The notes under the pieces: generated by a model
What the model saw: the letters and a program-made list of their open reading frames with translations, nothing else
Databases searched by the model: none
What the model was told of the DNA's origin: nothing
Position numbers and translations under genes: made by a program
In this document: piece after piece, positions 21,041 to 40,044 of the stretch
How the letters are laid out: each line of letters opens with the position of its first letter
How positions within the stretch are numbered: position 1 is the stretch's first letter
NCBI GenBank assembly: GCA_025336685.1
Contig: GCA_025336685.1_4717.1
Direction: 5' to 3' (one strand)
DNA length: 64,000 nt
Source: Escherichia coli
GTDB lineage: Bacteria > Pseudomonadota > Gammaproteobacteria > Enterobacterales > Enterobacteriaceae

Positions 21041-22255
21041 GTCGTTAAAGTAAATATCAACAGCTCGTTCCGTTGCGTAGAGGAGACCAAGATTCACAGT
21101 CCCAACCACTTCCGGTGAACCGATGATACGGTTAGCGATACTGGTGCCACTGAAGATAGCATCAAGGGTGTGCCCGTCTTCGGTTTTGTTCACACCATGA
21201 CCCACGGAAGAGACAACGGATTTCGCTTGTGCTGCGAAGGTACCCTTATCACCCATCCCCGCACCAAGGTCGTAACGCATGAAAATACGGATGGCGATCT
21301 GGTTCTCGCCTAACGGATTACCGTCTATTCTCACGTTACTGTTGTTGATACGCCCCGTCGTTGCTTCATTGAGTTTCAGTTCCTTGACGCGTTTAGCTCG
21401 CGCTTTATCTGCGTCACCGACGAGCGCCGCCATGGTTTCACTCATATCCTCAATCTGAGCGCGGTACAGCACATCGATCTGTACAACTTCACCATGAACG
21501 TCAGCACGTGGGTTATACTGACTCATACGACGTAATGCTTCAACGGCTTCCTGACTCTCATCACTCAGATCAGTTGCGATCGGTTCTTCCAGTGTTGCAA
21601 GAATAGTTCGAGGTTCAACATGATCGCCGATTTTTACGAGACCACGAATGTTGAGATGGGCGTCAACAATGAGCGTGCGGCTCTTAATCGATGGTGTTAC
21701 GAGACGATCGGCAAGATTGTCGAAGATATACGAACTGTCCTCGTGAGTCTCTGGAATATCCAGAATACCGACAAGAGACAGAACACCTGCGCGCCAAACA
21801 ACCTGACCTGGGTTCCACCAGTCGCGTTTAAAATAAAGACGATGGAAAACTACCACATCTTGATCCTTAACGCGATCCCCAACTTTATAATCGGTAATGA
21901 GGTCATGCGGATAATACTTACCTGGTCCTTTCCCGATTATCGTACCGAGTTGGAAAACCTCTTCTCCTAACTCTGGATCATCGTATTGTATCGTAAGCGC
22001 AGTTTTGGTGACCTTCTTCACAACACCATCGCCTTGGGCGGCAGCTGCGAAGAGTTTACCAACGCGATGCGCGATAACGGTCTCGCCACCAGTACGCCAT
22101 GGTTGTACATCGTAACCTTCAGCAGCAATCATGCGGTTGTGTTGGATGCCTATAAATACGAGACGCTTTGGCGGAATCCAGCAAAATACATTTACTGTGC
22201 GTCCGGATTGTTCAGATAAGGTCGTTAATCTTATCCCGGAGGCGATGATAGGCAC
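21032..22255 (-). CDS. putative RNA polymerase beta-like subunit fragment (middle segment)
   Basis: 407 aa; GDKGTFAAQAKSVV resembles beta GDKxAGRHGNKGV and a following G-T-x-x-D-x-I segment resembles beta PVDIVLNPLGVPSRMNIGQ (weak, by eye); GTG start preceded by GGGAGG SD. Confidence 0.3.
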   Translation of the reverse strand: MPIIASGIRLTTLSEQSGRTVNVFCWIPPKRLVFIGIQHNRMIAAEGYDVQPWRTGGETVIAHRVGKLFAAAAQGDGVVKKVTKTALTIQYDDPELGEEVFQLGTIIGKGPGKYYPHDLITDYKVGDRVKDQDVVVFHRLYFKRDWWNPGQVVWRAGVLSLVGILDIPETHEDSSYIFDNLADRLVTPSIKSRTLIVDAHLNIRGLVKIGDHVEPRTILATLEEPIATDLSDESQEAVEALRRMSQYNPRADVHGEVVQIDVLYRAQIEDMSETMAALVGDADKARAKRVKELKLNEATTGRINNSNVRIDGNPLGENQIAIRIFMRYDLGAGMGDKGTFAAQAKSVVSSVGHGVNKTEDGHTLDAIFSGTSIANRIIGSPEVVGTVNLGLLYATERAVDIYFNDAK

Positions 22256-22483
22256 ACCGCCTCCCGCTTACGCTCTCACGTAAGAGCAGACTATATCACA
22301 TCTCGTCTTAGGCTTGTTTTCACAAGTCAAACGGTGCTTCTTCAGCACCTCAACGAGAGTTCACTTCTTCCCAGCGCATCCAGCGCCATTCTCTTATCCA
22401 AGGAGAATGCCTCACTCGAGGGGTACAGGGGGATGAATCCCTTAGTCGTTGAACCGTCACCCTAGAACGTTTCACAACGATCC
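22256..22483 (-). ncRNA. structured non-coding region between HNH gene and beta-like fragment (possible group I intron 3' portion)
   Basis: 228 nt with stops in all frames of interest; on the minus-strand transcript at least four short hairpins (GGUGCU-GAAGAA-GCACC, CUUGU-GAAAA-ACAAG, CUUACG-UGAGAG-CGUAAG, CAUUCUC-N-GAGAAUG); catalytic-core elements not identified. Confidence 0.2.
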
Positions 22484-23695
22484 TTAGGCGATTGGCTGCG
22501 GATTACCCTTGGCCTGCGGACCACGAACTTTTGTCGCGGTCAACTCTTCATTTTTAAAGCCTGCTTTACGAGCAATACGTCTCGCTTCTCGCACGTCTAA
22601 CGTTTCCGTTTCCGCTTTGGCTGAAGGCAGCATTGGGCGTCCTCGCAATTCAATGAATCTCGTCCATACGTCACCGTATAAACGGACCCGCTCTTTGTAA
22701 ACAGAATAGTAAATATAACGTTTTCCGTCAGGGAATTTAGTCATCCCATCGGACTTCAAACGGTAATTGAGTAACGTAGTAGATATACCCATTTCTTCGG
22801 CGCAATCAACGGCTGAAAGGTACAATAGCGGTACATCATTTTCAGGAATGACGACAATAGCACGTTTGTTGGTTGTCTTCTCCAACTCCAGGATACTATC
22901 TTCGACTTCCCGCCACGGCGTCTCATCAGTAACCCATTTAACTTGATAACAGCCATTAACGACAGGTTGGTTCTTGTCGTTAACGTACATCGACGCAGTG
23001 GGTAACTTAACACCAATGTGATTAGCGAATTCAGTCAATGATTCGAAAAGATGAATCTCTTTTGTTATCGTTGACCTTGCAATCACGCCCTTACTCCCCG
23101 TATCCGTCAACGTTGCTAACTCGTATTTGGTAGGAATACGCCACGGTTCATCGCCGTAATCTTTGCGGTACTGCTTACGTTCAGGAAACGCTCGCTGTTT
23201 ACCTCTATAGACACGATGATGAATGAAGTCGATATTCACACCAAGATCGCGTGCCGCTTCCGTCATGGATGGATATCTAGTTACAACACCGGTGTCAACA
23301 TCACGAACCTGAATAGGTTTACCGTAAGCAGCAATAGAACGTTTACGCATGTTCATAATGCGGGCATGCTGATTGTTCTCTTTCTGTGTAACCCATTCAA
23401 GATTGTCATTCTCTGTGTTACCGTCGGGATCAAGGTAGTTATTAAGTCTGTTGCCGTCCTTGTGGTTCACATGGAGCAAATGCGCATCATCGATGTTACG
23501 GAACGTTAACATTAGAAGTCTATGCATGGAACGGTAAACCAATGTTCCATCGTGACCTCGAAACGAATAACGATAATACCCAGCAATGATGATGGGCAAA
23601 TATTCAAACTTCGATTCCTTGTTACGCAATGTTCCATCTATGGATATCTCCAGGAACGGGAATTCCGGTACGGTCTTAAATACCTTCTCACTCAT
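22484..23695 (-). CDS. HNH homing endonuclease with NUMOD/IENR-like DNA-binding repeats
   Basis: 403 aa; HNH motif HHVNHKDGNRLNNYLDPDGNTENDNLEWVTQKENNQHA; three helix-turn-helix-like repeats (YPSMTEAARDLGVN, FESLTEFANHIGVK, YLSAVDCAEEMGIS); AGAGGA SD; own promoter-like motif upstream. Confidence 0.85.
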   Translation of the reverse strand: MSEKVFKTVPEFPFLEISIDGTLRNKESKFEYLPIIIAGYYRYSFRGHDGTLVYRSMHRLLMLTFRNIDDAHLLHVNHKDGNRLNNYLDPDGNTENDNLEWVTQKENNQHARIMNMRKRSIAAYGKPIQVRDVDTGVVTRYPSMTEAARDLGVNIDFIHHRVYRGKQRAFPERKQYRKDYGDEPWRIPTKYELATLTDTGSKGVIARSTITKEIHLFESLTEFANHIGVKLPTASMYVNDKNQPVVNGCYQVKWVTDETPWREVEDSILELEKTTNKRAIVVIPENDVPLLYLSAVDCAEEMGISTTLLNYRLKSDGMTKFPDGKRYIYYSVYKERVRLYGDVWTRFIELRGRPMLPSAKAETETLDVREARRIARKAGFKNEELTATKVRGPQAKGNPQPIA

Positions 23696-23735
23696 TGACT
23701 ATATTCCTCTTGTGCAGTGATATTAACTACACTTT

Positions 23736-23744
23736 CGTAATATA
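23736..23744 (-). promoter_or_regulatory. promoter-like motif GGNCTATATTACC (copy 2)
   Basis: Exact CTATATTAC on minus strand about 40 nt upstream of the HNH ATG, in the 75-nt gap after the 1069 aa ORF. Confidence 0.35.
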
Positions 23745-23770
23745 GCCTTAATTCTGTTTACATTGAAGCC

Positions 23771-26700
23771 TTAATCATCTCTATCAGCAGCAGGTACTGC
23801 AAGTGCTGATGTACTCATTATTGACGAGCTACCATCCGTTTTCTCGTCGTAGGGTTTCGTTTCACCGTATACAGACACAATGTTTGCGTTAGGTGCGAGG
23901 TAAGCAGAAATACCTACATCCCCACTATCCTTCGTACCTTCGGATACAACACCAATGTCCGACTTGTCGTATTCACGATCGCGTGCGCGTCGAAGCGATG
24001 TCTTTGAACGCCCCCCGATACCGGTCATCGTTGCTTCTTCACCCTGCTTGATATCCAGCATCGGGTTGGTTTCATCGATCACGATGGAAGCGCTGTCGTC
24101 GAGAATTTGGTTCCAGACACTCACTGGACTGATTGAGATTTTCTGGCGGTTTCCTTGACTGCTGTTCTCGTTTTGACGAATAGCGCTAACCAGGTCCTTA
24201 TACACCAGTTCGGCGAACTTATCGTACGTTTTAAAACGTTGGTAGTTCACATCGTTCGTGTTAGGTGCCCAGTCATCCAGAAGCAGTTCAACAGCACGCA
24301 GTAACAACATGGCGAAATCGGTAGGTTCTCCCATGTTCTGTAGCAACGTACGGCTCACCGGATCGATGAAAAGACGCTCCATGAGTTCAAGTTCGCGTAA
24401 ATGGCGAACCTTAAGTCCAGCACCATCGACAACGTTAAAATAGATATCTCGATTGTCAAAAGCACCGCGAGCGTAACCGATGTAGTTACGGTACTCGTTG
24501 AACCCACCCAACAGCAACGTCGTCATGCGATCGTCTTTACTGAAGATCAAACTTTCGTCGTCAAAGCTCACCGCGAATTCATCGGGTGCTAGACCCATAC
24601 GAGAGCCGCGAGGTACCGTACGATAGTTCGCTTTAAGGTGTTCTAATAACGGGGTAAGCCCACCCAGATAACTTAGAACAACACCGACCGGAATACGTAC
24701 ACCCATGAATTCAAGATCGGCGGCTTCGATCGGCATCTTAGCCGCATTGATACCGAAGAAATCAGGGAACGTCCCTACAGGTGTTGGTGTTTGTCCTGAC
24801 TGACAGATATAGAGCTGATTGCGTTCATCGATTGCTAAGAATTCACCCAACGTGTTACGTGCAAACGTCAGGAGCCCTTCGGCTAACTGTTCGTTGAACC
24901 GATCTTCCCCAATGAACTCCGGCAATGTCTTTATATCGAGACGTATATCCCAATCAGCGAATTGGATTTGGGTATAGTTGCGTGCAAGCACTGCGAAGTA
25001 ATACGGGACTTTGACAGCCGGATCAAAGACGTTACCGCGTTTTAACGTGGTTAAGGGTGAGGACTTATCGTAATACATCGCCGTAAGTTGACGTGTTAGC
25101 CAACGACCCGCATTATTAACGACGCGCTCTGAACGTTTAACAAACACCTTACCGTAGGCGGTACTCAATGCAACTTCGGATGACGATACCTTTCTAATAG
25201 GTTTATCGACGCGTTGTTTACGCATCCGGTACTTGATGCCGTTAACGACATAAATGCCGTCCTTACGAACCTTCGGTAACATCACCGGGAACGTGGTCGG
25301 GACACCGCCTACGGGGGCCAGTTTAATCGTGATGACTTGATAATCCCCCATCACGTCAACAACATCTTCGACTTTATATCCCGTGACTGGGTAACCTGCC
25401 TGCTGTACCGCAACAACAGCAGCTGCGATGTCCTTTTGCATTACGTGTTCGACGTAATGTTTATCCCACACCGCAAGCGTCGATTTACATAAGCTCTTAT
25501 CGACGATAACGTCCGCTTCCGGCATAACCTTTGCGGGAGCTAATTTCGCGGCTTTTGGTTTAACTTCAACATACTCAGCAAGTGTTAATCCAGAACCGTC
25601 GGGTGCTTCGATTTCATGGATGGCGTCAGCGTTACGCATCGCTGCTTTATATTGGACGCCACTTAACTGCCCCGCATCCGCCAGATCGCCCGCGCGTACC
25701 AACACCGCATCCGATAACGACTGAATATACTCACCGTGTGTTTTTGGTAACGTTGTCGCGTCAAAGACATCAACCTTTTCTTCTTCGGTATCGTCAGTAA
25801 CGACTTCGAAGAGATCGTCGGTAATGTCCTGATCTTCATCAGGTTGGAAATCCGGTTGTACTTCTACCCCGGGTACTTCACGGACATCTTCGAACGTGCG
25901 TTCTACAACGGCGTTCCATGCATCAGCGTCATCGTCTTCATCCGACCCACCGACCAACTCCGCTTCTAACTCATCGGGGTCAAGAACAGTGGCCAGATCC
26001 TCACCGTTAGGAAGCACGACGTCACGATCGTCGTACTCCGCATCCGGGTTGTCGGTAAGAATATCTCGCTCTTGACGAAGAACCTGTTCCTCTTCTTGTT
26101 TCTGTTCTTCTTCATTCGCGCTCTGCGACCACAAACGTGTTACCGCCATCATCCAACGACGTTGGAAGGTTTCAAGTGTCGTTTTGTCGAGTTCTTCCCC
26201 TTCCTTTACAAGCCCGGTACGCCATTCCTCCAGCAGGCCGAGATTCAACGTAAAGAAGTACACACCGTCTGTAAATACAACGTTAAGCTTATCCAGCGTG
26301 GCCCTGTCTAACGAAGCCATCGTGCTGTTCTCACGATCGGTTCCCAACCAGCGGAAGAAGTCAAAGAACGACAGCTCCTCCGGTGTGGCGAAATTCATGA
26401 GGTTGTTACGGGTCGGTGCCTGTTGTGTGGTACGCATCAACGAAATCTTCGGCAATGTTGACGGTAAACGGAACAACAAAAAGTGTTGACGATCGCTTTG
26501 TTGTGCGATTTCGTTGGCTTTCGACCAAATTGTTTTACGTACGTTGAACCATTCATCATACCAACGGGTGAGCGTTGGACGATAGATGTACATGTGGTTA
26601 AGATGCGCGTAGTTAGCAACGATCTGAGCGTTGATGTTTTTCTCCACCGTACTTAGATCGGTAACCAAACGAAAACGACGATGCGATGCACGATAATCCA

Positions 26701-26980
26701 ATTTCGCTCGTGGAAGTTGGAATCGTTGATCGCGTCGAGGTGCGCCTTGTTTGGTTGCGAGATCATCAGCAAACGAAATCCATAGTTGAGCATTTTCTTT
26801 ACTCAGCATGTATTCGTTTTCTGGAGGACCTATCAATGAAGGATCCGTTGCGGTGTAATGATAGACAGCATAACGCGGCAGCTGCAATAGCTGCACTAAA
26901 CGTAATCTTGGTGATAGTAGCTCTTGGTAGCGTCTGACACCGAACTGTCGGTAGTAATCAAGGTATTTAAGTTTTGCCAT
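23771..26980 (-). CDS. putative RNA polymerase beta-like subunit, N-terminal fragment
   Basis: 1069 aa; by-eye matches to bacterial beta: [17 protein letters not shown] vs [33 protein letters not shown] vs [34 protein letters not shown] vs YGFLETPYRKVTDG near the C-terminus. Confidence 0.45.
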   Translation of the reverse strand: [1069 protein letters not shown]

Positions 26981-26983
26981 GGG

Positions 26984-28630
26984 TTAGGCTCCACGAGGTC
27001 CCGTTAAGTTGCGTAATAGGAACGCAACCGTATCGTAACCAATATCAATGTTGAATTTATTTTTACCACTTACCCAGAAAGCTCGCTTCTTGTGCGAGTT
27101 GGTAATTTCGTCAATGGCTTCCATGGAATAAAGAACGTTAACCGAGACCGTATCACCATCAAAGTCCCCGCCAAGTCCGGCGAGGTATGGGGCAGGGACA
27201 ATAGTCGTTTCTACGAACGAAGCATTAGGTAACCAGTCAGGGTATTCCCATGCGATAAATCGTTCATCCGTTATTGGTTCCCAGTTACTATCCAGTTCGG
27301 TTTTCGGTTTTGCGGCGACGGTTGTACGCGCATAACAGGTTAACGGGATAACGGATTGCATACCCGATACCGGATAACGTGTTACCATTGCAGCCAGGTT
27401 ATTCCAGTACTTATATCCGGCGATGTACACTAATTCGGTATACGTGATGGGGTGAACATCCGCACCAGGTTTATTCAACATTTCTGGGGGTAATTCACTC
27501 ATACCACGGAACAGTCGAAACGAATCATTGTTCACATAGACGAGGCAAAGATAACGTCCATTAACCATGATAGGTTCGTTACGCACGCCTGGATCGCTTA
27601 AGGTGTTCAATAAACGTTCTATTCCGTCCCATGTCGTAAAGTCATCGATGGTGTCTGGATCAAGCGTGACGCGTTCACGTTCCATCGTTTCGGTATCGAT
27701 AAGTTCAACTTCTGTAACATCACGGACAAATATTTCCTGCAAAATCCCCGTACGTAACGCATGTTGCGTCACGGGTAGGGCGGCTTTGCTCATCTGGTAT
27801 AACCCTAACTGAACTGCAGTACAGGAAGGCTGGTTGGGCGATCCTAGTACCTCCGTTGTGGGGTTAATTGCCGAAATAACGTTACGGGTTGAGTTCCAAA
27901 CACGACGTGAGCCGAACTTCCCTTGAAAGATCCCTTTCTTACCTTGGAACATATCCAACAACAAAGCGTAGATATCGTTAAATGTTCTCTGTAAGCTCCA
28001 GCGTTGGCCGTCGTAAACGGGATCGGAATAATCTTTTAATCCATCGGGGACGGTGTTAGAAATTGCAAGGAAACGACGATACAACTCCGTGATTTCTTGC
28101 TCGCTTTCATACCCGCCTTCTTTTACTTCTATTTCACGTAAGCCCGCAGGTAAAACCAGTAAGTGACGGGTCATCGCTTTGAACATGTTCTCTTCGACAA
28201 CTTTAATTCGTAGCTCTCGTTGAGCTGAACCCGTTGAAACGAACTTGATATCCGCGACGTGTTGTGCAAAGAACCCGTACCCTGTCTGTCCTGTTAACGC
28301 ATCAGACGCAACGAAATCGCGTTGTTCAGGATCCCACCGAGCGTACGCCTTCCCCGACATGATATCACCATAGAGGTGTTTTAATCGAATGAGGCGGTCG
28401 TAAATGACAGGATGCAGGATTTCAACTTTGCATTCAATCACCGCAAATCGACGGTCTCGATCTTCACTACCTGCACTACCAAAGATGGTGTAAGAATAGA
28501 AACCATCATCGTGGAAATTACCGGTGCTTGGGTCACGAATGCTCATGCTCGTGATCTTGGGGAGAAAACGTAACTGTTGTTTATCGAGGTGTAAAATACT
28601 AATATTAAACGGCTCTCTGACTTTAGCCAT
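26984..28630 (-). CDS. RNA polymerase beta'-like subunit, N-terminal fragment
   Basis: Catalytic motif GDFDGDTVSVNV (beta' NADFDGDQMAVHV) near C-terminus; QGKFGSRRVWNSTRNVISAINP resembles beta' GKRVDYSGRSVIVVGP; ORF track starts at 28672 but ATG at 28630 has an AGAGGAG SD. Confidence 0.65.
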   Translation of the reverse strand: MAKVREPFNISILHLDKQQLRFLPKITSMSIRDPSTGNFHDDGFYSYTIFGSAGSEDRDRRFAVIECKVEILHPVIYDRLIRLKHLYGDIMSGKAYARWDPEQRDFVASDALTGQTGYGFFAQHVADIKFVSTGSAQRELRIKVVEENMFKAMTRHLLVLPAGLREIEVKEGGYESEQEITELYRRFLAISNTVPDGLKDYSDPVYDGQRWSLQRTFNDIYALLLDMFQGKKGIFQGKFGSRRVWNSTRNVISAINPTTEVLGSPNQPSCTAVQLGLYQMSKAALPVTQHALRTGILQEIFVRDVTEVELIDTETMERERVTLDPDTIDDFTTWDGIERLLNTLSDPGVRNEPIMVNGRYLCLVYVNNDSFRLFRGMSELPPEMLNKPGADVHPITYTELVYIAGYKYWNNLAAMVTRYPVSGMQSVIPLTCYARTTVAAKPKTELDSNWEPITDERFIAWEYPDWLPNASFVETTIVPAPYLAGLGGDFDGDTVSVNVLYSMEAIDEITNSHKKRAFWVSGKNKFNIDIGYDTVAFLLRNLTGPRGA

Positions 28631-28782
28631 GGAGACACTCCTCTTTACCACCACCGGCTGCGGCGGTATCATCTGAACACACGAGAGACGTAATGGGTGA
28701 TGGCGTCACCCATCGCTTCCTTGCTTGAGGCGAGGAAGTTATTAGGTTACGTACCTGCCTGATTTTATCAGGTGGGCGATGT

Positions 28783-31479
28783 GTGAAGTTACGCTTCAAC
28801 ATTATCAATGCCGAAGGTAAACTTCGTGCATCACGTTCCAACGTAACATGGGAACGTATCGAACTGGAGGTATACATGGTAGATAAAACCCGTGTTGAGG
28901 GTGATGATAATTGGGATAACTGGGATGATGACTTCTCCCTGGATCTCGATTTTAACGAACCCAAAGACGATCGTAAACCGATAACACGCTTTGCGGTAGG
29001 AGCGGTTAAAGGTGCCGCTGAGGATCTTACTTCCTACGAAAGAATGAAGGAGATCGCCAGAAACGCATTGCCTAAGGGCTATAGCGACGGTATGGATCTT
29101 ATCGATTCCGCCGTCGGATCCACGAAGGAACTATACAATGAAGCCGTTCGTGATGTTCTTCCTAAGGTCCAAAGCTCAAAACGGTTAGCTGCACAACTGA
29201 CCAAGAAATACCGTGCGAGCATGCCCGATTTCTCGAAGAAAATTCTTGAGCAATGGGAGCGAGAAGCCAAGGAAGAAGACGAACGTAAACAAGCTGAAGA
29301 AACCCTTCGTCAACGCATGGCGAGCGCGGGGGACGATGAGGTCGCCCGCAAGGTTGCCGAGGCGTTAGGTGAATCAGCAAACCAAAGCGCGGATCAGTTT
29401 GCCGAGCAGCAAGCAAAAGAAAGTATCCGTGACGATATCGCTGACAAACGGTACGCTGTAACCAACAAACAAATGAGTGCGATGCAAGAAGGCGTCGCCA
29501 AGATGGTTGGTTTCAACAATGAATTCGCTGCGCGCTACATGCGTAAAAGCCTGGAACTGAAATATCGTTCCTTAGCGATTCAACGCGCAAGTTTCGATCA
29601 GCATAAAAAGTTAGCCGAAGTCTATATCGGTTTATTACAAAACATCCAGAAGAATACGGCTTTACCTGATGCGGCTAAAGCAAAAATGTCGGAAGAATTC
29701 CGCCGTAGCGCGTACCAACGTTTCTTTGGTAATGCGTTAGATGCGATGAGTTCTTTCGAGAACCGTTTCTTTGCCGATGTTAAGAAAAACCTTGCCACCA
29801 ACGCATTAGGTGCTTTAAAAGGCGTCGTGTCTGGCGCAAACGATGCGTTATACGGTTTAAACGAAGCACGTGACTCGATGTCCATGATGGATGGGATGGG
29901 GTCAGAAGGCGATATTAAGGAAATGCAAGGAAAGATGTTGGGTCAGTTCATTGGCTCAACTGTCGCACCATGGATGGCTAATAAAGGCAGGATGGCGTTA
30001 CGCGATTTAGCAAAACGTCACCCCAATGCTAAATTCGCTAGCGCGTTAAAAGCCGTGGATCAAGGTGGTGAAGCAGCCGCTTACACAACGCGCAATATCG
30101 GTAAACTGCTCCAGGAAGATATTCGTAAGAACGAATTCAATCTTAGCGATCCGTTTTACAAGCAATTGTTACGCGGCGCAGGGCGTTGGGCGTTCAACAT
30201 GGACAGCGGACGTAACTTCCGCGTGATGAACGACTCCGCTGAAACATTGGCTGAGCAAACGTCTTTCGACGGTTTAACCTACCGCAGCATCAACGAGGTT
30301 ATTCCCGGCTTTCTTGCGCGCATTCTGAAAAGCAGTGAGGGTATCCGCACTGGAAACAGCGATCCTGACTACGAGGTCTATGACGGCATCAGCGGGCAAT
30401 TCGTGTCTCAGCGCACGCGTGAACAAAGCGTCAACGACACGCTGTTTAACAAACGTTCGTTTGGTTATTACGCAAGCCGTTTCAATGAGGTTATCTCGGT
30501 CATCGATCCCGATAAACAATTATCGGAAAAAGCCAGAAAGGCGCTGGCTAAGCAGTTGGCACGAGATAGCGACGCAAATATCGCATTCGACCCGGCCCGT
30601 TTTACGGATGAAAGCAACTTCGATCGTAGTATTGACCGCGACGCTATTAAGGAACTTTCCACGTACTTTCGTGATCGTTACGGTATTCGTGACGATATCA
30701 ACGATAAGGGCGAACGTCATCAGGTCGTTGGAAACCGCGGGCAATATTACACGGAACGTAACCGAGCCGATCTTCGTTACGGAAATCTGAAATCTTTACA
30801 ACCGGATATCCAGCGTAACCTTAACCTGCTGAAACGTACTGGTGACGTCCAATATCTGGAACGGATTGGGATTGTAACGAGAAATAGCGACGGAAGCTAC
30901 TCGGTTAATCACGATCGGTATTTCTCTGAAATTGATCAATACATCGACCGACCGGAGTACGCCGAACGTAATGATGTTAATACGCGATTAACCGCTCAGG
31001 AAACAAGAGCGCTGGCGCTGGGTTATCGTGACGCAAAACCATCAGTTGATGACGTGCAAAATGCGGGTCTGCCGAACATCGATCGTAAGGCTGTTGGAAC
31101 AGTAACCGTTGATGAAAACATCGGCTACGATAAATGGTGGAACGACACGGGTGTTATCACCACATCGCTTGAAGAACAGAATCGAGCGTGGCAAGAGCTT
31201 TATCTCGAGGCCTTGTCTGAAGCATCCGAACAACGTGTTGAAATGCTTGCGTTACTGAAAGCCATTTCTGAGAAAGACTGGTCTAATAACGTTTCACTGG
31301 ATGGCGAAGATGTACCTGAAGGTACGGCACCCATTTCATTTATCGATCGTGCCAAACAAAAACTCGGCGCACGCAACCTCTTTAAAGGCGGTCGTAATCT
31401 CCTCTGGAAAGGAATTAAAAATACCGCACGGTTGGGTGTTAAAGGTGCACGCTGGGAGTGCAGAACACACACTAGGTAG
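28783..31479 (+). CDS. large virion/tail-associated protein, helical, 898 aa (possible N-terminal part of a giant tail protein)
   Basis: Long ORF beginning at GTG (first in-frame ATG at 28876); same strand as, and 347 nt upstream of, the lysozyme-domain protein. Confidence 0.45.
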   Translation: MKLRFNIINAEGKLRASRSNVTWERIELEVYMVDKTRVEGDDNWDNWDDDFSLDLDFNEPKDDRKPITRFAVGAVKGAAEDLTSYERMKEIARNALPKGYSDGMDLIDSAVGSTKELYNEAVRDVLPKVQSSKRLAAQLTKKYRASMPDFSKKILEQWEREAKEEDERKQAEETLRQRMASAGDDEVARKVAEALGESANQSADQFAEQQAKESIRDDIADKRYAVTNKQMSAMQEGVAKMVGFNNEFAARYMRKSLELKYRSLAIQRASFDQHKKLAEVYIGLLQNIQKNTALPDAAKAKMSEEFRRSAYQRFFGNALDAMSSFENRFFADVKKNLATNALGALKGVVSGANDALYGLNEARDSMSMMDGMGSEGDIKEMQGKMLGQFIGSTVAPWMANKGRMALRDLAKRHPNAKFASALKAVDQGGEAAAYTTRNIGKLLQEDIRKNEFNLSDPFYKQLLRGAGRWAFNMDSGRNFRVMNDSAETLAEQTSFDGLTYRSINEVIPGFLARILKSSEGIRTGNSDPDYEVYDGISGQFVSQRTREQSVNDTLFNKRSFGYYASRFNEVISVIDPDKQLSEKARKALAKQLARDSDANIAFDPARFTDESNFDRSIDRDAIKELSTYFRDRYGIRDDINDKGERHQVVGNRGQYYTERNRADLRYGNLKSLQPDIQRNLNLLKRTGDVQYLERIGIVTRNSDGSYSVNHDRYFSEIDQYIDRPEYAERNDVNTRLTAQETRALALGYRDAKPSVDDVQNAGLPNIDRKAVGTVTVDENIGYDKWWNDTGVITTSLEEQNRAWQELYLEALSEASEQRVEMLALLKAISEKDWSNNVSLDGEDVPEGTAPISFIDRAKQKLGARNLFKGGRNLLWKGIKNTARLGVKGARWECRTHTR

Positions 31480-31826
31480 TTTGGTAAATTCCGGTCGACG
31501 CATTATCAACTTCAACCGATTCGTGTTCGGCGCATTATCCAAGGTTGATCAAGTTCCGTTTGACATTTATGTTAAAAGTCAATACGCATACTGGCTGCCA
31601 AACTTCGTCGGTTATACTTCGACGAAGCGACAGGAAAAACCATAAAACGAATGAAGGATATCAAAGGCCCACTCGTTGATGCTGATGGAAACATCGTAAT
31701 CAGCAGCAACGAGGATATCGAGAAAAGGGTTGGTCACTCGCGCCGGTCGTGCCTTTGAAATTCAGGACTTAAAGCGTGGGCACATGAAGGTCTTAATGGA
31801 ATCACGACAGTCTTATTCTGCCACGG

Positions 31827-34800
31827 ATGTTAAAACGCGGTGCGGTTGAGATCTACAAACAGCTCGACAAAACGCCCGACGTTTACGTCAAGGGAGAATC
31901 AACACCTCGTCTATTATCCATGGTGTTAGCGGCAGGTGGGTATTTCCGTCGCTCCGACGGACAAACCGTCAAAAATCTTGAAGACATCGATGGTGATGTT
32001 GTTGATGCACAAGGTAACGTCGTACTTACGCTTGCCGACATGCAGAAAGGACTCGTCGATAAATACGGTAAAGCGATTCGTCGTTTAAAAGAAAAGCTCA
32101 TCAACTTCGGTGTAAAAGCTTTTACGTTACCGTTAACCTTACTACGCAAGACAAAGGACATCCTTAAAACCCTTCCAGGTAAAACCGTTAACGGCCTACG
32201 ACGGATGGGATTAAATTTCCAATCACCTGACGCATTATTGGTGGGAACAACGTCGAGCATGGTAGATCGTCTCGATGCTATTTACCAGCTCCTTGACCAA
32301 CGTATGCCTGGTGGTGATAGGGATTATCGCGATTGGAATGGAGATGGCGTTCGAGAAGGATCGTTGGAAGACCTGAAACGTAAGCGTGCAGCCAAGGAAA
32401 ACGGTAAGGATGACACTGGCAAAGATTCTAATAAAGGAGAAGAAAAGGAGAAGAAACGAGGATTACTCGGAAGCCTTTTCGATATGCTTGGCGACACCGC
32501 ATTAGGTAAACGCCTCATGGCGAGTCCGCTTGGAAAAATTCTAGGTGGTCTTGGAGCGGTGTTAAGCGGCGGTGCATCGTTAACCGGGTTGTTAGGCAAA
32601 GGCCTCATTAGTGGAACCGGCGCGCTGGTCAAGGGGGGACTAAGTGCGGCAGGATGGTTAGGACGTGGTGCGTTAATGGCGGGCGGGGCTGCATTGAACG
32701 CTGTTGGTGGGTTATCGGGATTAGGTGCATTCCTCATCTCACCTGTTGGGCTTGCTATTGCTGGCGGTGCATTGGCTGCTTATGCAGGATGGAAGATCTA
32801 TCAGCATTTCGCTGAGAAGCCTGACCCGATGCAGAAGCTCCGTCTTATTGCATACGGTGCAAAAGGGGACGATAAAGACTTCAATAAGAAGCTGCTTGCG
32901 ACAGAAACATACCTCACCGACCATGTGGTTATGACTGGGGATACCATCGGATTCGATCCGAAAGCGGATTCTGAAAAGATTCTCGAAATCTGGGAATTGT
33001 CCCTGGAAGATTCCGACCGAATGAACGAATGGAAACGCTGGTATCTGCATCGTTTTATTCCTGTTTTCGCTCGTGCGTACAAACTCTGGAAAGAGCATAT
33101 GCCGGACGAGAAGAAATACATGGAAATGGATAAATATCCGAACGGTGAGAACAAGGTGAAATGGTCGGAAGCGTTTATCTGGCCTTCCGATAGTCCTGAC
33201 GGTCCGTATTACGTCGAAGCTAACCCGTTGGGTTCTTCTGGTGCGACGCGTTATATTGCTGGTCAAGACGTCAAAACCTTGATGCTGAAACAACTCGAAG
33301 CCATCAAGAAAGAGTACCAGAATCAGATCAAACAATACTCTCATGATGAGGCTATTGCTGATTGGTCACGGATGTCTGACACACAACGTAAATCCGTTGC
33401 GCCTAACGCATTACGTGGTCAGAAAGCGTCGTTACGTTTTAACGATAAGCGTTACAACAGTGCTGGCGCTAAAGGACGACAGAAGCTTGACGCAACCGCT
33501 GTTATTGAAAGCGTAGACCGTCGTGGTAGGAAATGGGTTGCTGGCGGATACATCGACGAACTCACCAGTCTCCGTGTTCGCGCGTACGGTATTAAGGTTC
33601 CGTTGTTAAGTCAGATAAAAGTGCTGATGGAACTCGAAGACGCTGTAGAACCTGGCGTAGTCGCTGAAGGTAAAGGGGTTAAATACGGTGGCGATCTTGT
33701 CGCGCTCTACAAGAAATTCGCGACGAAGTTCGGAAGAGACGTTAACAGCAAGCAGGATCAGGATATCTGGTTTGCTTGGATGAACAACCGTTTCCTACCC
33801 GTCTTTTTAACCTATTACCAACACGTTAGCGACATGGGTGGTCAAGGACTTCTGTCCGACATGGTACAGAACCTGAAAGACAGCCAACGTTGGGAAATCG
33901 GTGAAGCACTTGTCGCAACGCAATACCGTGATGAGAAAGGTGCACTCCAGCCTGTATGGTCCTGGAATAGTTGTGGTTTCTCCGGTACTGAAGCTAACAC
34001 CACCAGCAGTTCAACAAAGAGCCAACTCGATCTGTTAAAAGAATATGCGGATAAAGAGAAGGTTCGTGAGAAGAACGCGGAAGCATCGCAAGAGGACACC
34101 GATAAATTATCGAAGATCCAAGAGCTGATGATGAAGCAGGCTGGGTACGAGAAGAAAGACGGTGTCTGGCAGAAGAAATCACGCATTACCGGTGGGATGA
34201 GTAACGCCGAAGCGAATTACAACCCCAATGGGAATAGGGTAGGTGCAAGCAGCTTTACTGCTTCGGCTACTTCCAGTGCTGGGTTGGGGTCAACCGGCGA
34301 TCTTACCGGATTGCCTAACATGGGCTTACAGAAACCTGCAACGGGACCAGGTCCTGAAGCTGGACGTCGTGCGCTTGTTAAATCCGCTGTGAAACGCGGT
34401 ATTACCGATCCAATGGAAATGGCGATGTTCCTTGCAAACATCGAACATGAATCGGGGAACTACAGTCACGTACGTGAGGGGAACTATAAGACACCAGAGC
34501 GTCTTAAACAGGTCTTCCCTTACAAATTCCGTGATGTGCAGGATGCCGCACAGACGATCAGCATGGGACCAGAAGCGGTATTCGAACGCGTGTATGGTAA
34601 TCGTAAAGACTTAGGGAACACGCAGAAAGGAGACGGGGCGAAGTATTTAGGACGCGGCTTCATTCAGGTTACCGGTAAAGCTAACTACGCTCGTCTGTCC
34701 AAGACCTTGAATAAGGATCTTGTCAGCGATCCGACATACCTGGAAACGCCGGAAGGTGCGGCGGAAGGTAGTGTCGCGTGGTGGCTCAACCGAGGTAACG

Positions 34801-35534
34801 TATTACGCGATCCCGCAAAACGGGGTGACGTACGCCAAGTTCGTTATCTGGTTAACGGTGGTTATAACGGATTACGTGACGTTGAACAGCGCTCTGCTTA
34901 TTGGATTCAGGCGGCTAAGAACGGCACCCTGAAGAAAATGATGGACGAGTTATCGGGGTCAACATCAGACGATCAAGCTGAAGGACCGACCACCGCCGAA
35001 CAGGTGAAGAATGAAGCGGCCCAAGAGGCGAACGGAACACCGACGGTAAGCAACGATCCGCAAGCCCCGGCATCTTCTACCACCCCTGAAGCTAAACCGT
35101 CTGCGGCTGCCGGTACGGCTCCAGCACCCGGAGAAGCATCACCAACGCCTGTAAGTTTCGAGACAGCAAAAGCTACGGCAGGACAACCGACATCAACTCC
35201 GGCACTTAGCGATTTGCCGTCAAACCCTGGTGCAAATCGAGGGATATCGGTTCCGAATACGCCTGCACAGGTCGCGCAGTCTGCGACACAAACATCGGCT
35301 GCGAGTGAGAACTTCTACGGTAGCGCAGGTGAAATTCTCCGACAGCAGCTGACCACGCAGCAGAACATCGAGAAGAACACCGGTAGAACGAATGAACTTA
35401 TTTCGGAATTAATCCAAGCCGTTAAGGGTTCTTCTATCGGTAAGGGTTCTGCAAGTCCTTCTCAACAACAGGCGATGTCGCTACCTAATCGTCCGCAAGG
35501 AATCTCTCCAACACGGACAAGGTACGCGCAGTAG
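31827..35534 (+). CDS. tape-measure-like virion protein with GH19-type lysozyme domain
   Basis: 1235 aa; Gly-rich hydrophobic repeats (GGLGAVLSGGASLTGLLGKGL..., about 32520..32760); lysozyme/chitinase-19-like motifs NIEHESGNYS and YLGRGFIQVTGKANY (about 34380..34920); Ala/Pro/Ser/Thr-rich C-terminal tail. Confidence 0.65.
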   Translation: MLKRGAVEIYKQLDKTPDVYVKGESTPRLLSMVLAAGGYFRRSDGQTVKNLEDIDGDVVDAQGNVVLTLADMQKGLVDKYGKAIRRLKEKLINFGVKAFTLPLTLLRKTKDILKTLPGKTVNGLRRMGLNFQSPDALLVGTTSSMVDRLDAIYQLLDQRMPGGDRDYRDWNGDGVREGSLEDLKRKRAAKENGKDDTGKDSNKGEEKEKKRGLLGSLFDMLGDTALGKRLMASPLGKILGGLGAVLSGGASLTGLLGKGLISGTGALVKGGLSAAGWLGRGALMAGGAALNAVGGLSGLGAFLISPVGLAIAGGALAAYAGWKIYQHFAEKPDPMQKLRLIAYGAKGDDKDFNKKLLATETYLTDHVVMTGDTIGFDPKADSEKILEIWELSLEDSDRMNEWKRWYLHRFIPVFARAYKLWKEHMPDEKKYMEMDKYPNGENKVKWSEAFIWPSDSPDGPYYVEANPLGSSGATRYIAGQDVKTLMLKQLEAIKKEYQNQIKQYSHDEAIADWSRMSDTQRKSVAPNALRGQKASLRFNDKRYNSAGAKGRQKLDATAVIESVDRRGRKWVAGGYIDELTSLRVRAYGIKVPLLSQIKVLMELEDAVEPGVVAEGKGVKYGGDLVALYKKFATKFGRDVNSKQDQDIWFAWMNNRFLPVFLTYYQHVSDMGGQGLLSDMVQNLKDSQRWEIGEALVATQYRDEKGALQPVWSWNSCGFSGTEANTTSSSTKSQLDLLKEYADKEKVREKNAEASQEDTDKLSKIQELMMKQAGYEKKDGVWQKKSRITGGMSNAEANYNPNGNRVGASSFTASATSSAGLGSTGDLTGLPNMGLQKPATGPGPEAGRRALVKSAVKRGITDPMEMAMFLANIEHESGNYSHVREGNYKTPERLKQVFPYKFRDVQDAAQTISMGPEAVFERVYGNRKDLGNTQKGDGAKYLGRGFIQVTGKANYARLSKTLNKDLVSDPTYLETPEGAAEGSVAWWLNRGNVLRDPAKRGDVRQVRYLVNGGYNGLRDVEQRSAYWIQAAKNGTLKKMMDELSGSTSDDQAEGPTTAEQVKNEAAQEANGTPTVSNDPQAPASSTTPEAKPSAAAGTAPAPGEASPTPVSFETAKATAGQPTSTPALSDLPSNPGANRGISVPNTPAQVAQSATQTSAASENFYGSAGEILRQQLTTQQNIEKNTGRTNELISELIQAVKGSSIGKGSASPSQQQAMSLPNRPQGISPTRTRYAQ

Positions 35535-35545
35535 TCATTAGTTAA

Positions 35546-35575
35546 GGGCGGGAGATTCCCGCCCTCTTCTTGAGG
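35546..35575 (+). terminator. intrinsic terminator (GGGCGGGA / TCCCGCCC hairpin then TCTTCTTG)
   Basis: Read directly, 12 nt after the stop of 31827..35534. Confidence 0.55.
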
Positions 35576-35583
35576 AATGTTAC

Positions 35584-36141
35584 ATGGGTATTCTTGTTCA
35601 AAACGCCCTAATCACCAAACAGGCGTTTTTATTACCTGGCGATAGCAGCACGCTGAGTGCCGACATGATTAAAGCGAGACATACACCGTATTCCTACGAT
35701 AACGTCGATGATACCACCTTAGGCGGGAACTGGGTGCTTAACCCACCACCGCAATATACGAAATTTGCCGACATCAAAGAACGGCGACGTGCGGTTATGC
35801 CGGGATCAACGGGCATGGGCCGAGGCTATAGTGAAAGCATTAACAGCTTTAAAGAAGTCGTTACGTTACGATTCGGTAAACCTCGCTTTACAGGCGCAAG
35901 TATCTTCTTTACCGATTTCTACGATGCGGATGTTGCCGTAACGGTTAAAACCGGTCGCGATCCCGGTATTCTTTATTACGCAGCCAAAGCGTATACCACC
36001 GTTCTTTCTTACCTCACGCCTCTACCTTACCTGTATATGGTTGACGTATCGGTCGATATTTCCCGGGTAAGCCTACCAGTCAATATTACTATCAAGTACC
36101 AACCATGCACGTGTATTGGGCGTCTTTCCAGACGCTGGTAA
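35584..36141 (+). CDS. hypothetical protein (185 aa)
   Basis: ORF track; overlaps the next ORF by 37 nt in a different frame. Confidence 0.4.
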   Translation: MGILVQNALITKQAFLLPGDSSTLSADMIKARHTPYSYDNVDDTTLGGNWVLNPPPQYTKFADIKERRRAVMPGSTGMGRGYSESINSFKEVVTLRFGKPRFTGASIFFTDFYDADVAVTVKTGRDPGILYYAAKAYTTVLSYLTPLPYLYMVDVSVDISRVSLPVNITIKYQPCTCIGRLSRRW

Positions 36142-37724
36142 ACCAAACAGCGATAAACATGGGTCTTATCGCCGGTGCTGGTAAAGATAAAGGCTATGTG
36201 GAAGAAGGGGGTACCGTACTCCACCAATATTCAATCGGTGGCCAGAACGTTGAAGAATTCATCAACTACGCCTCTAAGACGCTACCGGGGATTTATAAGA
36301 AAGGTGGTGGGATCGATATCTACCAGATTGCAACACGTCGTCAGCGTATACAAAACGCATGGGTACGTCGTATTCAATCCATGATGGAAAACGATTACTC
36401 GTCTTACGAGGAGTTCTGGAACGATCTTGATAAACGACTTGATAGCGGAGCATTTCCATCGGATGTAACCGGTCGTACGTTAACGCAGTATCTCGCCGAC
36501 ACACAGAAGTCTGCTGTTTACAGTGCGACAGCTGGTGATAATAAACAAACGATGGACGACCTTTTATTCGGAAGGGCCTCATACACCAACAAGGATGCTG
36601 ATGCCAACTTCAAAGTCTCGGCGGCTACCTCCGACGGTGGTACGTCAACACAGAGTCAGGGTACAACAGCCAATGTCGGTAATTCGACATCAGGGACAAC
36701 GCAGGCTGCAACAGCAGCATCGACGGCTGGAGGTGCGAACGTACAGAGCAAAGGGATCGGTCAAACAAATGCGGCCGAGGAAGCTACGTTTCTTGATCTG
36801 ATGGATGCTGAACTGGCTGACGGTGCTCAGTTTATCAGTTTTCGAGTCGATTCTGTCACCAGCGTAACCGAAACGTTTTCAAACAGCGCTTCAGAAAGTT
36901 CAATCGCACAGACGATGAATAGCCGCGCGCAAGCGAACATCGAACGTCGTTTCACCCTCTCCGGTGGTAATACAGGTTGGGCTGTACTAGACGAAGCCAT
37001 CAAAGCCGGTTCCGATCTCGTCAATGGTGCTATTTCCGGGATGGGTCTGGATGGTATTTTTGGTGCCTTCATGGGTTCCGGATTCGCTGACATTCCGAAA
37101 TTCTATTCTGGGTCGTCAGTAAGTCTACCGCGTGCCGATCTGATGATGGAATTGCGTTCCTGGAGTGGGGACCGCTGGTCGATCTTTACGAACCTCATGG
37201 TACCTCTTTTAGCTATCCTCGCAGGTGGCTTACCTCAGGCTACCGGTAAATCGTCCTACGGGATGCCGTTCATGTGTGAGTGTTATATTCCAGGTAAAGT
37301 CCAGATTAAAATGGGTCTTATCGATAACATCACTGTGACGCGTCATGTTGGAAACGTACCATCGACACGCGAACGATTACCGTTGGGCATCGATGTCAGC
37401 TTCAGCGTTTATGACCTATCGTCCATCGTCGCAATGCCGATCACAACGACAGCTGCATCGATCGCAAAATTAGATCCTCGCGGCTTCTTAAGTGATCTTC
37501 TTGCTGATGATACTCCGCTCAACAACTATCTTGCTGTATTATCGGCATTGACACTTACGGAACAAGTTTACATGATTCCTGATTTAAGTCGTCGCATGCA
37601 TAAAACCATGGCCGATATCGATAGTTTCTGGAGCAAAGGTAATTTTGCTAGCTGGTTGTCTGACACCATGCCAGGCAGGATAGCATCAGGGCTGTTATGG
37701 AAACGTACAGAACGACCGTTCTGA
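36105..37724 (+). CDS. hypothetical protein, putative virion protein (539 aa; start may be a downstream Met)
   Basis: ORF track; Ser/Thr/Gly-rich central region; last gene of the plus-strand tail module, followed by hairpin 37741..37772. Confidence 0.5.
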   Translation: MHVYWASFQTLVNQTAINMGLIAGAGKDKGYVEEGGTVLHQYSIGGQNVEEFINYASKTLPGIYKKGGGIDIYQIATRRQRIQNAWVRRIQSMMENDYSSYEEFWNDLDKRLDSGAFPSDVTGRTLTQYLADTQKSAVYSATAGDNKQTMDDLLFGRASYTNKDADANFKVSAATSDGGTSTQSQGTTANVGNSTSGTTQAATAASTAGGANVQSKGIGQTNAAEEATFLDLMDAELADGAQFISFRVDSVTSVTETFSNSASESSIAQTMNSRAQANIERRFTLSGGNTGWAVLDEAIKAGSDLVNGAISGMGLDGIFGAFMGSGFADIPKFYSGSSVSLPRADLMMELRSWSGDRWSIFTNLMVPLLAILAGGLPQATGKSSYGMPFMCECYIPGKVQIKMGLIDNITVTRHVGNVPSTRERLPLGIDVSFSVYDLSSIVAMPITTTAASIAKLDPRGFLSDLLADDTPLNNYLAVLSALTLTEQVYMIPDLSRRMHKTMADIDSFWSKGNFASWLSDTMPGRIASGLLWKRTERPF

Positions 37725-37740
37725 TATTCACTGCATAAAC

Positions 37741-37772
37741 CCCTCTCCCTTCCCTGATGGGTTGGGAGAGGG
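37741..37772. terminator. hairpin (CCCTCTCCC / GGGAGAGGG, loop TTCCCTGATGGGTT) between convergent genes
   Basis: Read directly; paralogous to the hairpin at 50601..50633. Confidence 0.5.
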
Positions 37773-37778
37773 AATATG

Positions 37779-38846
37779 TTAACCTAATGTCACCGTAGGT
37801 AAATCAGGATAAAGTTTCTTCAAGCCTGCCATCGTGGTGGTAGTTGTATAATTCTTACCCATCACAGCAAGAGATGCATATTTCTTACTGCGGGAGAAAA
37901 GGGAATAAAACCCACTGGATGTTTCCATCCACATCGTGAGGAGTTCTGCGTCGTTACCGTGATAGTTCGTTTTACCCCATCCAGGTTTAAACGCATCGGC
38001 AAAATCAATTAAACGCGATGCTTCGGCGTCGTATTCTTTAAGGGTAATGTACGATGGGATACGGTAGTTACGAAACAACAACGTAATGAGTTCAGGGACA
38101 ACGCTACGAGCGCGTTCAGCCGTAATGAGTTCGGTGATAACGGCAGCCGTACGGAAATCGCCGTTGAGGCCAACGCTGCTTAACGATTCCGCTAAAGTGG
38201 TTGCCATCGCCACTTTATCCTCCGCTGACCCAGAGTCATACAGACTACGTACATCGATATAGTTGCCTGCTAATGCGGCTTGACGAATCAACGACGTGAC
38301 AACCGTCCGGTTCGTCTTATAGTCGTTGTAGCTGAATTCGGTTCGCGTTTTCCCTTGATCGTCGAGATACCGATCGACAATCGTTGATAGTTTATAATAC
38401 TCATCGCCCGACATCAGACTATCGAGGAGCTTAACGTTTCCATCTTTATCGATAAGCTTCCCTAACGCACCATTGGATTGTTGGTTAATGGTGCTGTAAA
38501 TCTGATCTTTTACTTGCGATAGGATGTTATCAGTCGACGATATATTCAGACCAGTAACATCTTTGATCTTATTCATCAACGCGTTTTCATTCAGGGAGAT
38601 TTTGCCTCCGCTGATATCGATGAAAGAATTAAGATCGCTTATGGAAATCAGGTTTCCTGTTAACGCCGATAATGTACTATTGATACTGTTCGTAATACTG
38701 CTACGAAAACTGGTTAACGCATCCGCGGCCGAAACAGCGGTACCGCTAACCGCTTTAAGGAGCGTGTCGCGCCCTGTCGAAAAATCGCTGGTGATGGTTT
38801 TGATCTTGGACGTATCTATACTCGGCAGTTTGTCGTAAAGACTCAT
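37779..38846 (-). CDS. hypothetical protein (about 355 aa)
   Basis: ORF track gives 38897 as start, but that extension runs through the 38886..38911 hairpin; ATG at 38846 has an AGGAGG SD 5 nt upstream. Confidence 0.5.
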   Translation of the reverse strand: MSLYDKLPSIDTSKIKTITSDFSTGRDTLLKAVSGTAVSAADALTSFRSSITNSINSTLSALTGNLISISDLNSFIDISGGKISLNENALMNKIKDVTGLNISSTDNILSQVKDQIYSTINQQSNGALGKLIDKDGNVKLLDSLMSGDEYYKLSTIVDRYLDDQGKTRTEFSYNDYKTNRTVVTSLIRQAALAGNYIDVRSLYDSGSAEDKVAMATTLAESLSSVGLNGDFRTAAVITELITAERARSVVPELITLLFRNYRIPSYITLKEYDAEASRLIDFADAFKPGWGKTNYHGNDAELLTMWMETSSGFYSLFSRSKKYASLAVMGKNYTTTTTMAGLKKLYPDLPTVTLG

Positions 38847-38885
38847 CACGTCCTCCTGAAAAAGAAAAAAGAAATACGGCATAAA

Positions 38886-38911
38886 GCCTACCCACACAAT
38901 GGTGGGTAGGC
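38886..38911 (-). terminator. hairpin (GCCTACCCAC / GTGGGTAGGC) followed on minus strand by a T-rich run
   Basis: Read directly; downstream of minus gene 38929..39486. Confidence 0.5.
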
Positions 38912-38928
38912 TAAGATCAACATCGATG

Positions 38929-39486
38929 TTAAACTTCTTCGTTTTCTGAACCTAATGATTCAGCATCTGGATCGTCAACAGGAATTGTTGCGTCAAAATA
39001 CCGTTTCGTATGCGTGGTCGTATATCCTACACTATCTGTGATGGAAATCGTAAACGTGACTTCTCTCGCACGGATTAAGCGTAGTTTATTCATGAAGTTA
39101 CGGAACGGCATCGATCCCCGATTCAACTCCTTAATGACGTTTCCTCGAATACTGGAAATGTCTTTATTCGTTTTATCAGGATGTCGTTTCTTCACATCAC
39201 GCATATGTCGGGTAATATACGAATTGAGCTGATTTGCGCCGATCCCTCTCTCCGTATAAATCTGCAACAGGAACTCCGTAAGGAAATCCTGTCTACCCGT
39301 AGGCGTCCAGAAATTGTTACCGTGATTGTAGTTAGTCGCTCGTCCTCGATTACTTTGAGGATTTTCATCATCGTTTTCGTCACAACGCTTAAGCGGATTA
39401 ATGCGTGCTCGGAAAGAGACTTCATTATATTTATTTGTCATAATACACCAGTGTACTGACTGAGTGCGAAGGTTAGGAGTTCGCAA
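38929..39486 (-). CDS. hypothetical protein (185 aa)
   Basis: ORF track. Confidence 0.45.
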   Translation of the reverse strand: MRTPNLRTQSVHWCIMTNKYNEVSFRARINPLKRCDENDDENPQSNRGRATNYNHGNNFWTPTGRQDFLTEFLLQIYTERGIGANQLNSYITRHMRDVKKRHPDKTNKDISSIRGNVIKELNRGSMPFRNFMNKLRLIRAREVTFTISITDSVGYTTTHTKRYFDATIPVDDPDAESLGSENEEV

Positions 39487-39953
39487 CAGTCTCTCGCTAG
39501 TTTCCTTGTTTTGCGTAATCCATAAGCCGCATCCAAATCGTCACGTTCTGCCAGCGCGTCTAACCACGTCGCAAGTATGCGTCCATACTCGATAACGTCA
39601 CGCATGAGAACGTCGAACTGGATAACACGACCATCGGCATCAGCAAGCCAACGATTGAATGTGATTTGTGGTGCTAGTATTGCATATGTTCTCTCCTCTA
39701 ATGCTATTATGTTTATGTTGCCTTCGTTATCGAACGCTTGATGCCAACGGCGAAGGTCAAGCATCAACGACTCAGCGTCCATATACCACAACGGTAAATA
39801 CGTTTTACGTGCAACGCGTATATCGTAGATGTTGTGAACCCAGGACGTTGTTTTATAAAGCAACAAGAGTTCGTTTAACCGTTGCCTATCATCTTGAAAC
39901 GTCTTCCTTTTATAACGTTGGAATGCACGCCTCAAGAAAAAGCGATGTAACAT
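39438..39953 (-). CDS. hypothetical protein (171 aa)
   Basis: ORF track; CTATATTAC motif about 90 nt upstream. Confidence 0.45.
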   Translation of the reverse strand: MLHRFFLRRAFQRYKRKTFQDDRQRLNELLLLYKTTSWVHNIYDIRVARKTYLPLWYMDAESLMLDLRRWHQAFDNEGNINIIALEERTYAILAPQITFNRWLADADGRVIQFDVLMRDVIEYGRILATWLDALAERDDLDAAYGLRKTRKLARDCCELLTFALSQYTGVL

Positions 39954-40044
39954 GGCATCACCTATGTATCATTCTTGCAGGCATCAATGAAACCATCACA
40001 AGAAGGTAACGTTATACGTCGCCTCCATGACAGTCATCATGAAG

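Follow-up and report, generated by a model that had tools for sequence, protein, structure and literature searches.

The locus described here lies in a 64,000-nucleotide (nt) stretch of Escherichia coli contig GCA_025336685.1_4717.1 (the window), which belongs to a Goslar-like E. coli jumbo phage with ~95% identity to MK327938. Two long open reading frames (ORF1 and ORF2) follow one another on the same strand between positions 28,783 and 35,534, and the first-pass annotation took them for a single giant lysin of the phiKZ type that appears split by a 347-nt gap. The coordinates of both ORFs were confirmed, and three-frame translation of 31300..31900 found stops in all three forward frames of the gap (31480..31826). 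In the same translation, protein-like stretches change frame across the gap in the order 1 > 2 > 1 > 2 > 1 > 0, which suggested frameshifted coding sequence and not a true spacer.

Gene identity of ORF1 and ORF2

The 6.75-kb interval is 95.4% identical to Escherichia phage Goslar (MK327938.1) by megablast, and its counterpart there is a single coding sequence, Goslar_00232 (gp232, QBO64023.1, 'putative chitinase', 2252 amino acids (aa)). By blastp, residues 1-891 of ORF1 correspond to gp232 residues 1-891 with 97.6% identity, and residues 1-1235 of ORF2 correspond to gp232 residues 1018-2252 with 98.0% identity. ORF1 consists of the 891 N-terminal codons of the gp181/gp232 orthologue, followed by 7 out-of-frame codons and a TAG stop that it reaches because of a +1 insertion at 31457; ORF2 is made up of that gene's last 1235 codons.

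In distant jumbo phages, too, tblastn matches the two ORFs to consecutive stretches of a single gene. Against the PHROG 3201 profile, ORF1 aa 42-832 align with positions 8-778 of 2408 (E 4e-121), and ORF2 aa 184-1229 align with positions 1328-2401 of 2408 (E 6e-149). ORF1 aa 66-638 match phiKZ gp181 with 25.6% identity (E 2e-31, tblastn); gp181 (NP_803747.1) is a single 2237-aa gene in its annotated record, and it is the phiKZ virion protein of about 2200 aa with a lysozyme domain that the first-pass annotation had named for comparison. In Serratia phage 2050HW, the matches to ORF1 and ORF2 are consecutive, on one strand, and within one 2213-aa coding sequence. Both ORFs are completely collinear with single giant genes in Goslar, phiKZ, and Serratia phage 2050HW, which supports the proposal of one lysin. 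A search for homologous proteins with ORF1 returned no matches at E <= 1e-20 and was uninformative, as the giant proteins or candidates were probably not captured.

We then compared the locus with 28 relatives at 83-98% nt identity: Goslar itself, 2 IMG/VR contigs, 5 metagenome contigs (one of them only ~83% identical), and 20 Logan/ENA/NCBI contigs that were reached through two neighbouring proteins identical to those of the window. An uninterrupted gene of ~2252 codons is present in all 28, with the start called 31 codons downstream in some records (2221 aa); none of them has two genes here with an equivalent intergenic region. A single polypeptide of ~2200-2400 aa, a feature of the gp181 family, is therefore found in 28/28 relatives and is missing from this record (898 + 1235 aa) because of lesions that are private to it; the feature returns in the window once seven indels, described below, are reverted. 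The other sequence features of gp181-type lysins (PHROG 3201) are in place: N-terminal homology, collinear C-terminal homology, a peptidoglycan hydrolase domain in the C-terminal part, and synteny. Judged by these sequence comparisons, ORF1 and ORF2 are to be read as one gene, the orthologue of Goslar gp232 and phiKZ gp181, and not as two. The gene family is already known, and the locus holds nothing new in kind.

The orthologue in Goslar agrees with the window in the position of its start codon, its neighbours, and its GH19-type domain; the difference is that gp232 is one uninterrupted ORF whereas codons ~892-1017 in the window carry seven private indels. Likewise, phiKZ gp181 shares membership in PHROG 3201, similar size, N-terminal homology, synteny, and a muralytic domain ~85% along the protein, but it is a single polypeptide and carries an SLT lytic transglycosylase domain where the Goslar group has a GH19-type domain. 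In phiKZ, gp181 is a virion-associated peptidoglycan hydrolase placed at the device with which the tail punctures the cell (review PMC5380687, which cites Briers 2008 and Fokine 2008). The product of the gene studied here would be a virion-associated (tail) protein of ~2250 aa, with a conserved N-terminus, two tandem modules, a GH19-type hydrolase domain, and a conserved C-terminus. By analogy to phiKZ gp181, such a tail lysin would assist the tail in getting through the cell wall during infection.

Table 1 Features of the lysin locus, with positions in the window.
Feature	Position	Strand	Description	Basis
Goslar_00231 homologue	26984..28630	-	548 aa; divergent neighbour; piece of virion RNA polymerase beta subunit	Function by record annotation only
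ORF1	28783..31479	+	GTG start, 898 aa	ORF listing
Lesion patch	31457..31826	+	Ancestral codons ~892-1017; seven private indels and 8 private substitutions	
Indels of the patch		+	+1 (A, 31457); -7 (after 31583); -3 (after 31609); +3 (CAG, ~31701-31708); +1 (A-run ~31723-31726); -1 (after 31758); -1 (~31814-31817)	
Module A (broken)	31457..31826	+	Holds the gap; ancestral codons ~892-1017	
Two 13-nt direct repeats containing GCATTATC	31495..31539	+	Coding sequence in relatives	
Inverted repeat CTTCGTCG/CGACGAAG	31603..31627	+	8 bp, 9-nt loop; in relatives coding (KLRQGLYFDEA), 7-bp stem	
ORF2	31827..35534	+	ATG start, 1235 aa	ORF listing
Module B	31860..32156	+	Intact paralogue of module A, 42% aa identity	
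GH19-type (chitinase/endolysin-like) peptidoglycan hydrolase domain	34371..34928	+	ORF2 aa ~849-1034	Homology; predicted activity
Goslar_00233 homologue (PHROG 3181, phiKZ gp182 position)	35584..37724	+	713-aa gene, downstream; frameshifted only in this record	

Private lesions in the lysin gene and elsewhere in the record

In a pairwise alignment with Goslar, the seven indels all fall within 31457..31817, with a net change of -7, and the remaining 6.4 kb of the gene contains none. All seven are absent from 28/28 relatives and so private to this record; the junction segment measures 398 nt in 27/27 fully extracted relatives versus 391 nt in the window. Beyond these relatives, look-ups of the exact 1235-aa, 898-aa, 185-aa, and 562-aa proteins gave no entry, a 25-mer specific to the window does not occur in IMG/VR, and neither complete E. 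coli genomes and plasmids nor the GTDB representative genomes yielded a match. Reverting only these indels yields a stop-free ORF of 2252 codons. The codons that they hit, ~892-1017, make up module A, the first in a tandem pair of paralogous ~100-aa modules (A and B), and these seven small indels are what breaks the frame of the one gene. ORF2 starts ~10 codons before module B, at an ancestral internal Met codon. The coincidence of the patch boundaries with the ORF1 stop and the ORF2 ATG is not diagnostic, because the ends of the ORFs are set by the first and last indel.

The first-pass annotation described a hairpin in the gap formed by CTTCGTCG and CGACGAAG; the inverted repeat exists (31603-31610 / 31620-31627), but its loop is 9 nt, not 8, and its stem grew by one base pair relative to relatives through a 3-nt deletion. 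The two copies of GCATTATC are also present, inside a 13-nt direct repeat (31495-31507 / 31527-31539), and a repeated 8-mer in 347 nt is near chance level (we estimate ~0.9 pairs). These hairpin and repeat motifs are incidental coding sequence, not meaningful elements. RNA of the gap is no more structured than shuffled sequences (z = -0.71), and the gap has no promoter-like site and no terminator-like site on the + strand. It has no Rfam match at E <= 1 in a search that recovered a group I intron at 22267..22709, the only match in 20000..40000. There is no Shine-Dalgarno core of at least 4 nt upstream of the ATG at 31827, compared with 51 of the 55 gene starts in the window that do have one.

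Two further genes in this record are frameshifted at G/C runs, and again only in this record. A 1-nt deletion (GG>G) at 36044 splits the 713-aa gene downstream of the lysin (Goslar_00233) into ORFs of 185 aa and 539 aa, the second of which begins at an ATG (36105) with no Shine-Dalgarno sequence upstream. Two 1-nt deletions, at 46621 and 46659, hit C and G runs in the 508-aa RNase H gene (Goslar_00246; 46444..47968, - strand), where two substitutions adjoin them; the last ~60 codons of this gene are out of frame, and these displaced codons are still 98% identical to Goslar. Both genes are intact in every relative whose locus reaches them.

To count private changes we used a 21-kb alignment of 12 genomes, the window and 11 relatives. 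The window has 10 private indel events and 62 private substitutions, whereas the 11 relatives together have 5 and 1141 (odds ratio 37, p = 7e-10), and 7 of the 10 events in the window lie within 370 nt (p = 6e-11). Compared with the two closest relatives (L021 and L018, with 98.35% and 97.7% identity over 21 kb), the window shows no indels beyond the patch's seven and those at 36044, 46621, and 46659; all ten are in conserved genes and none is intergenic. Outside the patch, 13 of the 18 indels between the window and Goslar are in intergenic DNA, which makes up ~5% of the sequence. A comparison of 5.3 kb upstream added two window-private indels, both intergenic, which do not discriminate between a sequencing error and a recent mutation.

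Substitutions are also concentrated in the patch, where we observed 8 private ones versus 0.97 expected (P = 8e-6), several of them abutting indels. All eight change a G on the + strand (five G>A, two G>T, and one G>C), compared with 8 of 54 elsewhere (p = 4e-6); this spectrum points to a process that differs from the one behind ordinary divergence. Far from the indels, private substitutions are 32 synonymous to 11 non-synonymous, and within 60 nt of an indel they are 6 to 6. In the parts of ORF1 and ORF2 outside the patch, there are 12 synonymous and 5 non-synonymous private substitutions; most are thus silent or conservative, and these 6.4 kb contain no indel at all, which argues that both halves have been kept under purifying selection.

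Several accounts of the patch were set aside. With three relatives only, the private substitutions in the gap looked third-position or synonymous, as if the segment had been translated until recently; this inference was withdrawn because, with more relatives, most of these substitutions turned out to be shared polymorphisms, and the truly private ones are half non-synonymous and all from G. Gene conversion from module B was rejected on direct reading, as the window-specific variants do not match module B. Templating by quasi-palindromes fits only the +3 and -3 events, and, taken whole, the junction has less structure in the window (-104.5 kcal/mol) than it has in relatives (-114 to -129 kcal/mol).

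Domains, neighbouring genes, and introns

The predicted hydrolase domain in ORF2 matches endolysin chains in the PDB (9eoi, 7r6s, 9ms6, and 4ok7) at E 1e-17 to 1e-22, the best at 2e-22, and the PHROG 181 endolysin at E 2e-53; the match to Pfam Glyco_hydro_19 is weak and under the curated cut-off. The muralytic domain is swapped at an equivalent place in the family, being GH19-type in the Goslar group versus SLT (PF01464) in phiKZ gp181 (aa 1885-1978) and in Serratia phage 2050HW. The tandem modules, which span 31457..32156 in the window and aa ~920-1127 of Goslar gp232, share PD[IV]YVKGES.PR and DI.G..VDA.GNVV, among other motifs; they have no match to a Pfam family.

Gene order is shared by the window, Goslar, and phiKZ: the lysin gene is divergent from a gene for a virion RNA polymerase subunit (phiKZ gp180) and is followed by a gp182-type gene, with the functions of these neighbours taken from annotation. 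In Serratia phage 2050HW, the single gene also adjoins a virion RNA polymerase subunit gene. Further downstream, at 37744..37763, the hairpin of the terminator between the convergent genes 35584..37724 (+) and 37779..38846 (-) carries seven private substitutions that together equal a small inversion.

On the lysin gene's other side, the presence and absence of introns is reciprocal between the window phage and Goslar. In the window, a 1448-aa gene (the Goslar_00228 homologue; 21032..26980, - strand) is interrupted by a 1.6-kb insert, 22170..23787, that is not in Goslar. This insert contains the group I intron mentioned above (Rfam Intron_gpI, 49.4 bits) and a homing endonuclease ORF of 403 aa (22484..23695) that has NUMOD1 and I-TevI DNA-binding domains; the insert at this site is shorter, ~0.5 kb, in three relatives (L028, L031, and L033). 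Goslar, for its part, has a 2045-nt insert at 211754..213799 (Intron_gpI Goslar_00229 together with Goslar_00230) in a gene that is uninterrupted, at 548 aa, in the window and in many relatives. Because this intron-bearing insert interrupts its gene, Goslar_00231 (502 aa) is probably mis-annotated and without its downstream exon.

Origin of the frame break

What broke the frame? The first-pass annotation left four alternatives for the gap: a real two-gene arrangement, a pseudogenised junction, an intron, or an assembly error. The intron and the conserved two-gene arrangement are excluded; an assembly error, which we favour, and a pseudogenised junction are what remain. We infer that the cause is most probably technical rather than biological. 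Our preferred explanation, which we hold with confidence somewhat above even, is that the break is a local patch of sequence or assembly error in this record. Such a patch could be, for example, a poorly supported stretch of consensus, and the phage itself would then be expected to make the full-length protein. We favour an error because three conserved genes are broken in one of 29 genomes, because the indels are placed blindly with respect to coding sequence, and because of the 37-fold excess of indels. The break is not shaped by selection: it is private, it lacks start signals, and its mutation spectrum is aberrant. In its private, coding-blind indels, its conserved downstream sequence, its restorable ORF, and a downstream half that lacks start signals, the locus resembles a pseudo-frameshift error or a fresh pseudogene; it differs from these in that seven events in 370 nt, with a bias specific to G, are unusually dense for either cause.

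Several observations weigh against an error. The assembly is otherwise clean, such that a special local failure must be assumed: most homopolymers keep their length relative to Goslar, and no gene in the 64 kb other than the frameshifted ones named above is broken. These same observations led us to reject the idea of a long-read assembly that is noisy throughout. Simple homopolymer miscalls do not account for most of the seven indels, among which are a CAG duplication and a 7-nt deletion that has substitutions next to it. Should the assembly be built from deep short reads, ten errors of the indel type would be out of the ordinary, and real lesions would be likelier.

A possible but less likely explanation is that the lesions are real: a very recent, unselected cluster of mutations in module A, arising from error-prone repair or from strand-specific damage to G/C, together with independent frameshifts in two genes. 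The genome would then be defective or attenuated, producing the 898-aa fragment efficiently and little ORF2, and it could survive through complementation or in a persistent state without plaque formation, as reported for Goslar-like phages of bacterial isolates. The character of the lesions fits this explanation in several ways: the 7-nt deletion with its flanking changes, the tandem duplication of CAG, and the loss of single bases outside homopolymers are more like mutations than like platform errors; the +3 and -3 events both lengthen existing inverted repeats, as happens in template-switch mutations; and the bias toward changes from G could reflect one strand-specific chemical or enzymatic event. 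The cleanness of the rest of the assembly fits as well. Of the 60 Goslar-like genomes in one survey, 59 were drawn from assemblies of bacterial isolates, where they count as 'persistent' phages (bioRxiv 10.1101/2024.12.31.630880), and persistence in isolates is a setting in which virion genes might briefly escape selection. Yet three conserved genes broken in one lineage, and in none of 28 relatives, would be a heavy load for a replicating lytic phage, and the ratio of synonymous to non-synonymous substitutions away from the lesions shows no general relaxation. A single exotic event would be needed to place seven indels within 370 nt and leave the other 6.4 kb of the gene free of them, and ORF2 has acquired no compensating adaptation such as a Shine-Dalgarno sequence. 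A more specific version, in which a localised, strand-specific burst of mutation (loss of + strand G, G>A/T/C changes, and small indels, all within 370 nt) knocked out an essential tail lysin in a Goslar-like phage whose persistence in its host does not depend on infectious virions, we consider improbable; possible causes of such a burst are a deaminase-like or nucleotide-depletion defence or the error-prone repair of a break.

Still more doubtful is an evolved, functional arrangement of two genes, in which chains of 898 and 1235 aa are made, a break in a duplicated linker module is tolerated, and the 347 nt have decayed to a spacer. In its favour, both halves remain intact and show purifying selection, one of the paralogous modules is lost to the break while ORF2 starts just before the surviving copy, and the patch has 0.25 indels per mismatch, similar to the 0.21 seen between the window and Goslar in intergenic DNA. 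But the split is found in none of the relatives, the closest of which (98.35% identity) is intact, leaving little time for decay, and the gap has no Shine-Dalgarno sequence, promoter, or terminator. Slow neutral decay of a spacer is rejected by a mutation spectrum that differs from the lineage's normal one and by the indel excess on the window branch. Finally, similar unadapted frameshifts occur in two other genes of the same record.

Removal or bypass of the gap during expression, through a group I or II intron, an intein-like element, programmed frameshifting, or ribosomal bypassing, is effectively refuted: although this phage group does have group I introns close by (22267..22709 in the window; Goslar_00229), the gap has neither an Rfam match nor unusual folding, and its homology with the in-frame coding sequence of module A in 28/28 relatives extends base for base, such that nothing has been inserted. 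Recoding would take four frame changes instead of one conserved site, with stops in each wrong-frame stretch, where the relatives need no recoding at all.

The main value of the locus is for annotation and quality control: neither ORF1 and ORF2 nor the 185-aa and 539-aa pair downstream should be annotated as separate genes. Nothing in the data requires the lesions to be real. If they are, the window would represent a natural knock-out of a gp181-class tail lysin in a nucleus-forming jumbo phage, and it would be relevant to the persistence of Goslar-like phages in bacterial isolates.

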